In this document: one piece after another, positions 5,983-27,495 of the stretch
Layout: every line of letters starts with the position of its first letter
How positions within the stretch are numbered: position 1 is the first letter of the stretch
Program-made: the position numbers and the translations under genes
Notes under the pieces: model-generated
What the model saw: only the letters and a program-made list of their open reading frames with translations
Databases searched by the model: none
Told to the model about the DNA's origin: nothing
Source of the DNA: Candidatus Babelota bacterium
Lineage (GTDB): Bacteria > Babelota > Babeliae > Babelales > UASB340
NCBI GenBank assembly: GCA_018897535.1
Contig: JAHIKO010000039.1
Location: 1 to 40,746 of the forward strand
Direction: 5' to 3'
Length of the DNA: 40,746 nucleotides

Positions 5983-6030
5983 GCCAACCGTTTGGTTGGC
6001 CTGCCAGCCAAAGCCACGAAGGGCGTAGAC
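5983..6030 (-). repeat. GC-rich tRNA-Lys 3' trailer box, same family as the boxes at 26384..26415 and 26796..26827
   Basis: The minus strand reads GTCTACGCCCTTCGTGGCTTTGGCTGGCAGGCCAACCAAACGGTTGGC. It shares an exact 13-mer, GGCTGGCAGGCCA, and the leading CTACGC with the tRNA-Val trailer. It also holds a GCCAACC/GGTTGGC hairpin. Confidence 0.55.
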
Positions 6031-6106
6031 TGGTGAGCCGCGTAGGAATCGAACCTACGACCCACAGCTTAAAAGGCTGTTGCTCTACCAACTGAGCTAG
6101 CGGCTC
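6031..6106 (-). tRNA. tRNA-Lys (anticodon UUU), CCA encoded
   Basis: The reverse complement reads GAGCCGCTAGCTCAGTTGGTAGAGCAACAGCCTTTTAAGCTGTGGGTCGTAGGTTCGATTCCTACGCGGCTCACCA. Anticodon stem ACAGC/GCTGT, loop CTTTTAA. Confidence 0.9.
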
Positions 6107-25563: not shown

Positions 25564-26259
25564 ATGTATATTTTAGAAGGCAATATTGGAGCAGGAAAAT
25601 CCACCTTTTTAAATAAAATAAAAGACTATATACCTGAACTTGAAATTTTGACTGAACCGGTAAACAATTGGACCAATCAAATATTTGGCCAATCTTTGCT
25701 TGAAAATTTTTATAAAGATACTTCCAGATGGGCTTATACTTTAGAAAATTTGGCTATGATTCATAGAGTAAAAGATCACATAGAAATACAAAATAGCAAA
25801 AATGAAAATATTGTTATTGAACGATCTATCTATTCCGGTCACTATTGTTTTTCTAAAAATAGTTACAAAAACGGACATTTAACTGAAATTGAATGGGAAA
25901 TATATTCAAAATGGGCCAATTTTTTATTAAAAAGCTGCAATACACCTAAAGGTTTTATATATCTTAAAGCAGACGCTCAAACATGTATGACCAGAATAAA
26001 AAAAAGAAATAGATTGAGTGAAAAAAAGATGACATTATCTTATGTAAAACAAATTGAAGACTGGCACGAAAAATTTCTAATCAAAAAAGAAGATATCCAT
26101 GAAAGCTTAATTAATGTTCCTGTGCTAACATTGGATTGTAATAAAGATTTTTTAGAAGACGAATCTTTACTAAAAGAACATATGTATAATGTAAGAGAAT
26201 TTATACAAAGACCACAAATTTTTAAAAACACACAAGAAAAAACAGCTTTTTTTGAATAG
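25564..26259 (+). CDS. Deoxynucleoside kinase (dAK/dGK/dCK family)
   Basis: P-loop ILEGNIGAGKST, then EPV..W, then ERS...D..F. Arg-rich lid RIKKRNR.SE. Confidence 0.85.
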   Translation: MYILEGNIGAGKSTFLNKIKDYIPELEILTEPVNNWTNQIFGQSLLENFYKDTSRWAYTLENLAMIHRVKDHIEIQNSKNENIVIERSIYSGHYCFSKNSYKNGHLTEIEWEIYSKWANFLLKSCNTPKGFIYLKADAQTCMTRIKKRNRLSEKKMTLSYVKQIEDWHEKFLIKKEDIHESLINVPVLTLDCNKDFLEDESLLKEHMYNVREFIQRPQIFKNTQEKTAFFE

Positions 26260-26264
26260 AATCT

Positions 26265-26293
26265 TTGACTTGTTGTTTTTTTTACTTTAAAAT
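26265..26293 (+). promoter_or_regulatory. Candidate sigma70-type promoter of the Val-Asn-Asp tRNA operon
   Basis: TTGACT, a 17-nt spacer, then TAAAAT, ending 13 nt before tRNA-Val. Confidence 0.45.
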
Positions 26294-26306
26294 TTATGTG
26301 CATTTA

Positions 26307-26383
26307 GGGCGAATAGCTCAGTTGGTTAGAGCACCTGCCTTACAAGCAGGGGGTCGTAGGTTCGAATCCTACTTCGCCCACCA
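26307..26383 (+). tRNA. tRNA-Val (anticodon UAC), CCA encoded
   Basis: GGGCGAATAGCTCAGTTGGTTAGAGCACCTGCCTTACAAGCAGGGGGTCGTAGGTTCGAATCCTACTTCGCCCACCA. Anticodon stem CCTGC/GCAGG, loop CTTACAA. Confidence 0.9.
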
Positions 26384-26415
26384 GCCTACGCACAAGGCTA
26401 CGGCTGGCAGGCCAG
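26384..26415 (+). repeat. GC-rich tRNA-Val 3' trailer box
   Basis: GCCTACGCACAAGGCTACGGCTGGCAGGCCAG. It shares CTACGC and the exact 13-mer GGCTGGCAGGCCA with the tRNA-Lys trailer. CTGGCAGGCCAG recurs at 26547..26558, and a degenerate copy (CTGGCAGACCAG) lies at 26570..26581. Confidence 0.6.
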
Positions 26416-26457
26416 AAATATGATCTTTATTGATATTATTAGAAAATTTGACGTAGG

Positions 26458-26541
26458 CTGTCCGCCATAGCTCGCCAGAGCGACGGCTGGACCAGTTTCT
26501 TCGCCAAGGCTTCCGCCGTCGCAAAAAGCTATGGCGGACAG
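26458..26541 (+). other. 84-nt GC-rich extended hairpin in the tRNA operon spacer (candidate structured RNA or palindromic element)
   Basis: A perfect 15-bp stem, CTGTCCGCCATAGCT (26458..26472) with AGCTATGGCGGACAG (26527..26541). A perfect inner 8-bp stem, GCGACGGC (26480..26487) with GCCGTCGC (26515..26522). The 27-nt apical region can pair further (GGACC/GG..TCC). G+C is far above the surroundings. Confidence 0.5.
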
Positions 26542-26628
26542 GTCGACTGGCAGGCCAGCAAAGTATAAACTGGCAGACCAGAAAAAATTTGCAAAAAAAT
26601 TAGTACTTTGATAATTTAGTGTAAATGT

Positions 26629-26704
26629 TCCTCGGTAGCTCAGTTGGTAGAGCAAACGACTGTTAATCGTTGGGTCGCAGGTTCGAGTCCTGCCCGGGGA
26701 GCCA
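26629..26704 (+). tRNA. tRNA-Asn (anticodon GUU), CCA encoded
   Basis: TCCTCGGTAGCTCAGTTGGTAGAGCAAACGACTGTTAATCGTTGGGTCGCAGGTTCGAGTCCTGCCCGGGGAGCCA. Anticodon loop CTGTTAA. Confidence 0.9.
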
Positions 26705-26717
26705 TAAAATTTTAGCT

Positions 26718-26795
26718 GGAGCTGTAGCTCAGTTTGGTTAGAGCGTCCGCCTGTCACGCGGAAGGTCGCGAGTTCGAGTCTCGTCAGCTCCGCCA
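26718..26795 (+). tRNA. tRNA-Asp (anticodon GUC), CCA encoded
   Basis: GGAGCTGTAGCTCAGTTTGGTTAGAGCGTCCGCCTGTCACGCGGAAGGTCGCGAGTTCGAGTCTCGTCAGCTCCGCCA. Anticodon stem TCCGC/GCGGA, loop CTGTCAC. Confidence 0.9.
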
Positions 26796-26827
26796 TACTT
26801 CGCCAAGGCTATGTATGGCACAGCCAG
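26796..26827 (+). repeat. GC-rich tRNA-Asp 3' trailer box
   Basis: TACTTCGCCAAGGCTATGTATGGCACAGCCAG. It contains the exact 13-mer CTTCGCCAAGGCT, also present at 26499..26511 inside the hairpin apex. Its overall layout parallels the Val trailer (..CGC.CAAGGCTA.G..GGCA.GCCAG). Confidence 0.5.
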
Positions 26828-26836
26828 TTAAATTAG

Positions 26837-26868
26837 AAAAAGCCGTCGATAAATTCGACGGCTTTTTT
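26837..26868. terminator. Rho-independent terminator of the tRNA operon (bidirectional; also serves the convergent HAD gene)
   Basis: AAAAAGCCGTCGA-taaat-TCGACGGCTTTTTT. Confidence 0.75.
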
Positions 26869-26898
26869 GTTTTAAAACTATTTTTTACTTTATATTAA

Positions 26899-27495
26899 CT
26901 AAATAAACTTATTAACAATGTCTTCAAATTCAATAAAATTTTTATATACAAAACTATTAAAACCATACTTATTAGCTTGCTCAATATGTTTAGGTTCATC
27001 ATCCCAAAACATAATTTCATTTTTTAAAATATTATTTTTGTTTATTTTTTTATAAATATATTCAAAAAATGTTTGATCCGGTTTTTTAAGTCCAATTTCG
27101 GCTGAAGAAAAGATATCATCAAATATATCTTTAAATCTCATTTCATTTTTCATATATTCGGTTCTATATTTTTCTTGATTTGTTGCCAAATAACACTTTA
27201 TTCGCATATTTTGCAATTCTTTAATTTTTAACAATACTCGCTTATCACATTCTTTTTGCGATTCAAACCAATATTTTATTAAAAAATCAACAGATTTATC
27301 ACACTCCCATTTTTTAAGATATTTTTGAAATTCTTCTTTTAAATCAGCATCAGATATAAGACATTTTTGAAATTCATTCTTAAAAAATAATATTGATTTT
27401 TGCAAAGAAATGCCAAATTTTACGTCAAGATCATCGCTAAATCTTTTAGATGGTGTAACCATTCCATCTGAGTCAAATATTATTGCTTTTATCAT
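26899..27495 (-). CDS. HAD-superfamily hydrolase (subfamily IA-like)
   Basis: Motif I IIFDSDGM at the N-terminus, ..LATNQ.., and the C-terminal ..FWDD motif IV region. Confidence 0.7.
   Translation of the reverse strand: MIKAIIFDSDGMVTPSKRFSDDLDVKFGISLQKSILFFKNEFQKCLISDADLKEEFQKYLKKWECDKSVDFLIKYWFESQKECDKRVLLKIKELQNMRIKCYLATNQEKYRTEYMKNEMRFKDIFDDIFSSAEIGLKKPDQTFFEYIYKKINKNNILKNEIMFWDDEPKHIEQANKYGFNSFVYKNFIEFEDIVNKFI

Follow-up and report, generated by a model that had tools for sequence, protein, structure and literature searches.

The Ssn nuclease and its SRM hairpin repeats are the closest published analogue of the element described here, a GC-rich hairpin between the genes for tRNA-Val and tRNA-Asn in a 40,746-nt stretch of DNA from Candidatus Babelota bacterium (contig JAHIKO010000039.1 of assembly GCA_018897535.1; the whole stretch is called the window, and positions are those of the window). 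The source genome belongs to the Dependentiae and comprises 1.06 Mb in 89 contigs at 29% GC. We found the hairpin to be built of short palindromic units of two kinds, termed A and B, and consider it likely to be the gene-less relic of a small selfish element, a cassette that is anchored at the CCA ends of tRNA and transfer-messenger RNA (tmRNA) genes and that, in its full form, encodes an 80-aa GIY-YIG nuclease. Ssn is a 94-aa single-domain GIY-YIG nuclease that binds NTS/SRM hairpin repeats in single-stranded DNA (ssDNA) and makes its cut on their upstream side (Chenal et al., Nat Commun 2025, PMC11893778). For binding, SsnA depends critically on the C that comes right after the palindrome, and the ssn gene is typically flanked by repeats; the family is recognised by cd10448 and by the SRM pattern HGTCWYN(0-2)YYVSBRHN(0-5)WNVSBRGN(0-2)RNCYNB (PMC11893778).

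Both systems have a tiny single-domain GIY-YIG gene, short hairpin repeats that flank it, and many gene-less copies of the repeats. The C directly 3' of the palindrome, critical in SsnA, is nearly invariant in the A and B units, and an upstream cut of the kind made by Ssn would suit the 19-23-nt duplications of tRNA ends that we found in the cassettes. However, the A and B units do not fit the published SRM pattern, the cassette nuclease appears to belong to another subfamily (28% identity and a probability of 89% in hhalign against the Ssn-type protein of this genome), and the word 'tRNA' occurs 0 times in the main text of the Ssn report (PMC11893778). The SRM pattern gave seven matches in this genome, compared with 0-2 in shuffled sequences; all belong to another repeat family (TGTCATCCCGGAC...), and none lies in the tRNA trailers of the window. 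In addition, contig C15 of this genome (9137-9563) encodes a 118-aa GIY-YIG protein of the '...AIAREKQLKGW' type, and the gene has inverted TGTCATCCTGAAC...GATTCAGGATCCAGTC repeats on both sides. Judging from the sequence, this Dependentiae genome thus appears to contain a genuine Ssn/SRM system.

A second comparison is with repetitive extragenic palindromes (REPs), the bacterial interspersed mosaic elements (BIMEs) that they form and their associated Y1 transposases (RAYTs). These share with our family GC-rich imperfect palindromes, head-to-head pairs that form large hairpins, and many gene-less copies alongside few or no protein genes. In contrast, the partner here is a GIY-YIG nuclease, not a Y1 transposase, and the units are anchored on CCA. 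REPs are typically lineage-specific, whereas the conserved boxes of the A and B units are common to several phyla. The units also have no GTAG foot and do not themselves flank the Y1 transposase gene of this genome, which sets them outside the REP/RAYT family. The region of that gene (C15:20359-21027; PF01797, 94 bits, 139 aa) has inverted REP-like repeats (GTAG-CCCAGTGCG...GAGCCTGC...) with A and B units nested in their loops; its layout is REPtron-like, it coexists with two other hairpin-repeat systems in a 1-Mb genome, and a search of the region against Rfam found nothing. A second Y1_Tnp match lies on C13, one of a set of short contigs of high GC content (C3, C5, C40, C47 and others of 2-4 kb, at 40-67% GC in a 29% GC assembly) that are probably mis-binned contamination.

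Rickettsia palindromic elements (RPEs) are likewise palindromic repeats of reduced, intracellular-type genomes that insert in frame into protein genes. Their sequences appear unrelated to the A and B units, and to our knowledge they show neither anchoring at tRNA ends nor a linked nuclease gene. Phage T4 SegB is a larger, multi-domain protein compared with the 80-aa cassette protein. According to the abstract on SegB, this GIY-YIG nuclease gene lies among tRNA genes and spreads as selfish DNA, as proposed for our cassette, but the enzyme cuts double-stranded DNA, and the abstract notes no CCA-anchored hairpins (PMC2330249). Theta ribozymes resemble our units in being structured elements that start exactly at a tRNA 3' end; HDV-like ribozymes cut 5' of a conserved G1, and 4.5% of theta-associated tRNAs encode CCA (PMC10879173). 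A 2006 phylogenomic study of GIY-YIG proteins goes no further than a remark that bacterial Slx1-like proteins might act in RNA metabolism. Neither Rfam nor the searchable literature yielded a description of hairpins anchored on CCA or of GIY-YIG mini-cassettes at tRNA ends. Compared with published knowledge, the combination of a small nuclease with hairpin repeats is already known and the anchoring on CCA at tRNA ends is new; the stretch 26416-26581 is itself only a gene-less member.

Repeat units within the hairpin

The gene for tRNA-Val(tac) occupies 26307-26383 on the forward strand (ARAGORN; 79.9 bits with the Rfam tRNA model), and its encoded CCA at 26381-26383 is the anchor of the element. 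The gene for tRNA-Asn(gtt) lies at 26629-26704 (ARAGORN), and the spacer between them is 245 nt long. The structural features named in the original prediction, which had been made from the letters alone, were recovered in our analysis. The outer stem is a perfect 15-bp pairing of CTGTCCGCCATAGCT (26458-26472) with its exact reverse complement AGCTATGGCGGACAG (26527-26541), the inner stem pairs GCGACGGC (26480-26487) with GCCGTCGC (26515-26522) over 8 bp, and the apex of 27 nt includes CTTCGCCAAGGCT. The GC-rich island exceeds 60% GC, versus 29% for the genome. Exact copies of the 12-mer CTGGCAGGCCAG stand at 26404 and 26547, a degenerate version that differs by one mismatch, CTGGCAGACCAG, stands at 26570, and a TTGACT-17-TAAAAT promoter lies ahead of tRNA-Val (26265-26293). 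A genome-wide search, which had been suggested for the 15-mer of the outer stem, returned no other occurrence. The reported complementarity of CGTAGGC and GCCTACG is real and grows to 9 bp, CAGCCTACG (26382-26390) with CGTAGGCTG (26452-26460), and therefore begins at C75-A76 of tRNA-Val.

Folded as RNA, the spacer reaches -90.9 kcal/mol, compared with -63.0 +/- 4.4 for dinucleotide shuffles (z = -6.4; equalled by 0 of 200 shuffles), and its reverse strand gives z = -4.2. The element could not be placed in an RNA family by eye, and a covariance scan likewise assigned it to none: Rfam 15 gave no match to the spacer beyond chance, either over the whole window at gathering thresholds or over 26250-26900 at E<=10. 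A scan of 26150-26950 for intrinsic terminators found 0 sites, and a terminator reading of the hairpin was ruled out, the sequence 3' of 26541 having no T-run.

In its simple form the A unit reads CCA-NNN-TWC-GC[variable stem-loop]GC-TWY-N'N'N'TGG-CAGGCCAG, that is, an outer stem of CCA and 3 nt with 3 nt and TGG, a 3x3 internal loop of pyrimidines, a variable tip and a CAGGCCAG tail. The B unit has the form TCC-NNN-...-N'N'N'GGA-CA(A/G)G and sits inside an A unit, where it follows the first T of the 3-nt internal loop. Using a covariance model of the A unit (R1), we identified A unit #1, CCA-GCC-TAC-GC-ACAA-GGC-TAC-GGCTGG-CAGGCCAG, at 26381-26415 on the forward strand (50.8 bits, E 3.6e-9; nhmmer E 5e-7); its outer stem, CCAGCC/GGCTGG, takes in the CCA of tRNA-Val itself. 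An AT-rich spacer follows (26416-26451), recognised from its sequence and matched by the spacer in full cassettes of relatives (L155, L156 and L158), and then the distal inverted box CGTAGGCTG on the forward strand (26452-26460). Next comes a reverse-oriented unit, TCCGCC-ATAGC-TCGCCAGA-GCGAC-GGCTGGA, at 26461-26491 on the reverse strand, which is equivalent to the 'hairpin 2' of full cassettes and has the layout of the hairpin 2 ahead of the open reading frame (ORF) at locus L158 of relative G001 (GTCGTAGGTG-TCCGCC-ATAGC-...). Its own stem is hybrid and mismatched.

A unit #2, CCA-GT(TT)C-TTC-GCCAAGGC-T[B unit]TC-GACTGG-CAGGCCAG, was parsed from the sequence at 26492-26558 on the forward strand and opens with a free-standing CCA. 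The B unit nested after the first T of its internal loop, TCCGCC-GTC-GC-AAAAA-GC-TAT-GGCGGA-CAGG, occupies 26512-26542 on the same strand. The same arrangement of an A unit with a nested B unit follows tRNA-Met (C7) and tRNA-Leu (C66), and near-identical B units stand 3' of tRNA-Ser(tga), tRNA-Ala(tgc), tRNA-Ala(cgc) and tRNA-Ser(gga) in this genome. Finally, CTGGCAGACCAG (26570-26581, forward strand) is the tail remnant of an older A unit and aligns with ACCGTCAAACCAT, the end of the single A unit in the closest relative, G003.

The hairpin is a by-product of two repeat units that abut in opposite orientation. Fold and exact complementarity resolve the 84-nt double-stem structure (26458-26541, forward strand) into the reverse-oriented unit, which supplies the left arms of the 15-bp and 8-bp stems, and the forward B unit, which supplies their right arms. 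With the A-unit profile, nhmmer matched both halves separately, at 26490-26464 on the minus strand (E 0.008) and 26516-26558 on the plus strand. The two stems correspond to two conserved boxes, GCCGTCGC and AGCTATGGCGGACAG, present in one copy per unit, and they exist only because the boxes of the reverse-oriented unit and of the B unit are mutual reverse complements.

Two further A units were found in the window. One follows tRNA-Asp (26793-26827, forward strand; CCA-TAC-TTC-GCCAAGGC-TAT-GTATGG-CACAGCCAG; R1 E 2.8e-7) and the other follows tRNA-Lys(ttt) (5996-6033, reverse strand; R1 E 4.5e-9). The hairpin had been described as lying in the spacer of a tRNA operon. Its position between tRNA-Val and tRNA-Asn stands, but operon status is uncertain, there being a second promoter-like site, TTTGCA-16-GATAAT, just 5' of tRNA-Asn (26588-26615, forward strand). 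Because of this site and the similar sequence in the 3' part of most related spacers, a promoter of their own is possible for tRNA-Asn and tRNA-Asp, which may be transcribed separately from tRNA-Val.

The repeat family and its full cassette

When the 110 nt 3' of each gene were extracted, a GC-rich module was found directly on the encoded CCA at 22 of the 42 tRNA and tmRNA genes of this genome. Among the R1 matches listed for the genome (n=18), 15 begin on the CCA of a tRNA or tmRNA. The original prediction had held that hundreds of dispersed copies unrelated to tRNAs would mark a generic REP or miniature inverted-repeat transposable element (MITE); we counted about 40 unit copies, the majority of which start exactly at a tRNA or tmRNA CCA. 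The 6-bp outer stem of the A unit covaries (CCAGCC/GGCTGG, CCATAC/GTATGG, CCAGTC/GACTGG), as does the inner stem (GCTC/GAGC, GCTCC/GGAGC, GCTGC/GCAGC). In an alignment of 18 A-unit copies, 95% of cells were paired and four pairs showed compensatory change; 0 of 500 shuffles matched either the percentage paired or the covariation score.

The sites occupied by units are positions that would be unpaired in a folded single strand: the NCCA tail, the 3-nt internal loop of the A unit, and loops belonging to two further hairpin-repeat families of this genome. Target-site duplication (CCA...CCA for A units, TC...TC for B units) was rejected as a rule, since B units start with TCC even where the target loop is TAC (C67:23339) and insertions into SRM loops on C85 and C59 show no duplication. 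A and B units also stand in frame at two sites within a class I aminoacyl-tRNA synthetase gene (C67:21744-24437), and an A/B unit lies in the 5' part of an open frame, a putative bioY (C85:9460-9493); these units inside ORFs occur alone or nested in an SRM hairpin. A full A unit at C11:14899-14937 follows '...AATTAAGGTACACCA'. ARAGORN and Rfam detect no RNA gene at this position, and the copy may mark an unrecognised CCA-ending RNA or be a stray copy.

Beyond this genome, R1 matched 25 of 31 relatives and, in the phylum as a whole, 106 of 151 sampled genomes from 69 of 96 genera. All 31 inspected matches in relatives sit on a tRNA-like 3' CCA end. They comprise the best loci in relatives, 11 of 11 of which begin on a tRNA CCA, and 20 further matches from 20 other genomes, 18 of them adjacent to an ARAGORN prediction, one with a coordinate shift at a contig end and one with a tmRNA-like T-arm. 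For other phyla, scanning a single genome of each GTDB species for an exact pattern provided 80 loci among the matches listed, and the result is to be read qualitatively, not as a census. About 50 of these are full-length R1 matches of 40-60 bits, nearly all placed after a tRNA T-arm and acceptor end. The lineages among the matches listed are Alphaproteobacteria, Nitrospira, Verrucomicrobia, Omnitrophota, Planctomycetes, Acidobacteria, Deltaproteobacteria and lineages of the candidate phyla radiation (CPR), and the loci, some of which come from isolates (Sphingorhabdus sp. EL138, Mesorhizobium caraganae) or from complete chromosomes, have a local GC of 36% to 72%. Three of the loci listed follow the apparent acceptor piece of a two-piece alphaproteobacterial tmRNA. 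Given this occurrence at tRNA ends in many phyla, the element is therefore neither specific to Dependentiae nor a young, lineage-specific MITE.

ORF clustering at the loci from other phyla yielded a sole family common across phyla, an 80-aa protein whose ORF begins 60-200 nt 3' of the unit in 10-11 of 46 loci among the matches listed. The protein consists of a GIY-YIG domain (PF01541, E about 5e-16) and has no DNA-binding domain. No NCBIfam model matches it, and its nearest solved relatives are UPF0213 BH0048 (1zg2) and Slx1. A profile of ten such proteins located the gene in 112 of the 151 Dependentiae genomes, at 1-11 copies each that are mostly intact.

In close relatives, and likewise in other phyla, the full cassette begins at a tRNA ending in CCA, followed by an A unit, an AT-rich spacer and an inverted copy of the A-unit 5' box. 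Hairpin 2 comes next in the opposite orientation (TCCGCC-GAAGC...GCGAAG-GCGGAC), then the ORF from ATG to stop and a 3' hairpin. The cassette closes by repeating the final 19-23 nt of the tRNA, CCA included, after which another A unit follows; full tRNA-end copies were found at L157, L160 and L161. An inverted 10-mer (<=1 mismatch) lies within 160 nt downstream at 27 of 69 loci, compared with 1 in the control upstream of the tRNA and 2 in the same-sense control, and the inverted 5' box covaries with the local variant of the trailer. At L160 (contig C49 of relative G004), two identical GIY-YIG cassettes stand in tandem after tRNA-Arg(tct), each of them closed by 19 nt copied from the tRNA 3' end, which shows that cassettes can stack at one tRNA.

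The window shares with the full cassette its first unit, the R1 match at 26381-26415 that starts on the encoded CCA of tRNA-Val, and its leader, in which the inverted box at 26452-26460 is followed by the reverse-oriented hairpin at 26461-26491. The 80-aa GIY-YIG ORF that should come after the leader is missing. There is no ORF within 26384-26628, and tblastn and hmmsearch did not find the cassette nuclease gene in this genome. The GIY-YIG matches that do occur in the genome were rejected as the cognate nuclease, one being the Ssn-type gene on C15 and the other a spurious match to an RHH-type ORF on C51. With no 80-aa ORF at the locus or in the genome, the locus is therefore a gene-less derivative and not a full member. 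Relative G002 similarly has 20 units and no nuclease ORF.

Turnover at the spacer and alternative explanations

We compared the orthologous tRNA-Val/tRNA-Asn spacers in nine relatives. In the closest of these, G003, the spacer is 82 nt, has one different A unit and lacks 26392-26573, while its flanks are 92-97% identical. One A unit is also present in G002 (79 nt), G010 (97 nt), G006 (101 nt) and G005 (109 nt), whereas the G004 spacer (73 nt) has no unit and that of G001 (325 nt) has several, some of them inverted; the spacers of G007 and G011 measure 140 and 154 nt. A filled and empty pair was also observed, G001 containing a 33-nt B unit where G002 and G010 keep an uninterrupted A unit. Between tRNA-Asn and tRNA-Asp, G010 has a 733-nt cassette with an ORF, compared with 13 nt in the window. 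The wide differences among spacers indicate that units come and go on a within-genus time scale; despite this turnover, the architecture is kept from phylum to phylum.

Alignment in relatives thus gave a hairpin that is not conserved within the genus and is missing from the nearest relative. Four interpretations had been offered originally, and three of them, a processed small RNA, an RNase processing platform and a sponge-type transcribed spacer, are disfavoured by this lack of conservation and by the explanation of the stems through two opposite repeat units. The fourth, a REP/MITE-like palindromic insertion, came closest, in that the units form a dispersed repeat family and the hairpin is absent from the orthologous site of G003, but most copies are bound to tRNA ends. 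What the letters of the window alone could not reveal was that the repeat forms the leader of a GIY-YIG nuclease cassette and is found in many phyla.

A relic of a tRNA-anchored cassette would account for the layout as follows. The window would represent the left part of a cassette (A unit #1, spacer, inverted box and reverse hairpin) that runs into CCA and A unit #2. The insertion would have arrived after the split from G003, and the ORF may have been lost by recombination between the two similar flanking hairpins, hairpin 2 and the 3' hairpin; such a loss would explain the hybrid, mismatched stem of 26461-26491. By analogy with Ssn, the A and B hairpins may be ssDNA recognition sites of the cassette nuclease, with units inserting into unpaired positions such as the NCCA tail, hairpin loops and internal loops. 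A cut upstream of the A unit would land in the T-arm and acceptor region, in keeping with the duplications of 19-23 nt at tRNA ends. Since the genome lacks a cognate gene, the locus is probably inert, made solely as the 3' trailer of tRNA-Val from the TTGACT/TAAAAT promoter and probably trimmed off.

Several points weigh against this history. Neither an ORF nor an ORF fragment is left at the locus, and descent from a full cassette therefore has to be read from the architecture; it is also possible that the units came in as pieces without an ORF. The tRNA 3'-end copy that closes a cassette has shrunk here to (A)CCA at 26491-26494, ahead of A unit #2. In addition, gene-less units far outnumber ORFs (20 units and 0 ORFs in G002, about 40 and 0 in this genome), and a host function may therefore be what maintains some of the units.

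A wider proposal, which we advance tentatively on the basis of these analyses and as a joint claim, is that the A and B units might serve as cis-acting hairpin sites, in single-stranded form, for a family of 80-aa GIY-YIG nucleases that is pan-bacterial and has so far gone undescribed, with insertion only into unpaired ssDNA, a switch of expression, about half of Dependentiae tRNA genes colonised and ORFs entered in frame. Insertion would be limited to the NCCA tail, the loops of other repeats and the family's own 3-nt internal loop, and tRNA ends would be a safe harbour. As for expression, a T-run of 5-6 T directly follows the A-unit tail CUGG-CAGG-CCAG or CUGGC-ACG-GCCAG at 9 of 20 Dependentiae loci (L165-L184), and the terminator-like tail hairpin at these loci and the CCA-pairing stem are mutually exclusive. 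The two could act as a switch between read-through and termination; competition between the CCA-pairing stem and the CUGG-CAGG-CCAG(+U-run) hairpin would couple expression of the nuclease to transcription of the tRNA.

Alternatively, the units may be a selected, functional 3' trailer RNA of tRNAs that serves in CCA masking, as a block to 3' exonucleases, as a processing guide or as a terminator, with the GIY-YIG gene riding along. The stem that includes CCA covaries, the unit is kept across the whole phylum and beyond, terminator-like T-runs follow the tail in 9 of 20 units of relatives, and units persist without a nuclease gene in this genome and in G002. Nevertheless, we regard this explanation as unlikely. 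The nearest relative lacks the hairpin, and there is no unit at the G004 site; units are found on only about half of the tRNAs, and the set of carriers differs between relatives; units occur in frame within protein genes (the synthetase gene on C67 and the putative bioY on C85) and in the loops of two other repeat families; and the units in this window have no T-run after them. A role in double-strand processing is further opposed by the reported absence of RNase III from Babela (PMC4378268).

We give little credence to an ordinary REP/BIME-type element mobilised by the Y1 transposase of this genome and unconnected to the GIY-YIG gene. This genome does encode a Y1_Tnp protein (C15:20486-20824, 94 bits) whose gene is flanked by inverted GC-rich repeats holding nested A and B units, and our hairpin is a BIME-like, head-to-head repeat pair. 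The flanking repeats, however, are a different sequence family (GTAG-CCCAGNGC...) in which the A and B units merely occupy the loops, and at the loci analysed it is the 80-aa GIY-YIG ORF, and no Y1 transposase, that recurs next to the unit across phyla. We also know of no REPs that anchor on tRNA CCA ends.

A self-cleaving ribozyme cutting at the tRNA 3' end, for example of the minimal HDV-like 'theta' type, is highly improbable. Such a ribozyme would fit an element located exactly at the tRNA 3' end, the long-range pairing of the first ~10 nt of the trailer with a downstream box, and the precedent of theta ribozymes behind phage tRNAs (PMC10879173). Against this, no HDV-like or other ribozyme model in Rfam matched at E up to 10, the +1 base after CCA varies between copies (G, T, A or C) as opposed to the conserved G1, CCA is encoded by every tRNA here versus 4.5% of theta-associated tRNAs (PMC10879173), and copies occur in both orientations and inside ORFs. 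Least credible of all is a small RNA in its own right, or a 3' external transcribed spacer that acts as a sponge in the manner of 3'ETS-leuZ; either would agree with the location in a tRNA 3' trailer and the stable fold but not with an element that is built wholly of repeat units, is not conserved in the closest relative, has no Rfam match and shows no evident unique single-stranded seed region.

Implications for tRNA genes and small nucleases

Our results matter for the annotation of small RNAs, as striking GC-rich structures in the tRNA spacers of AT-rich, reduced genomes may be debris of mobile elements and not regulatory RNA. The parent element is very small (about 300-750 bp), selfish and directed at a sequence common to all tRNAs; its range spans at least eight phylum-level lineages, and in this genome half of the tRNA genes are occupied by it. 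Each affected pre-tRNA carries a stable hairpin that pairs its own CCA end, which raises the question of how tRNA 3' maturation copes. If the cassette nuclease recognises hairpins as Ssn does, its family would be a new source of small nucleases specific for a sequence or a structure. Overall, this reading, if true, would assign a function to the widespread Slx1/UPF0213-like mini GIY-YIG proteins of bacteria.

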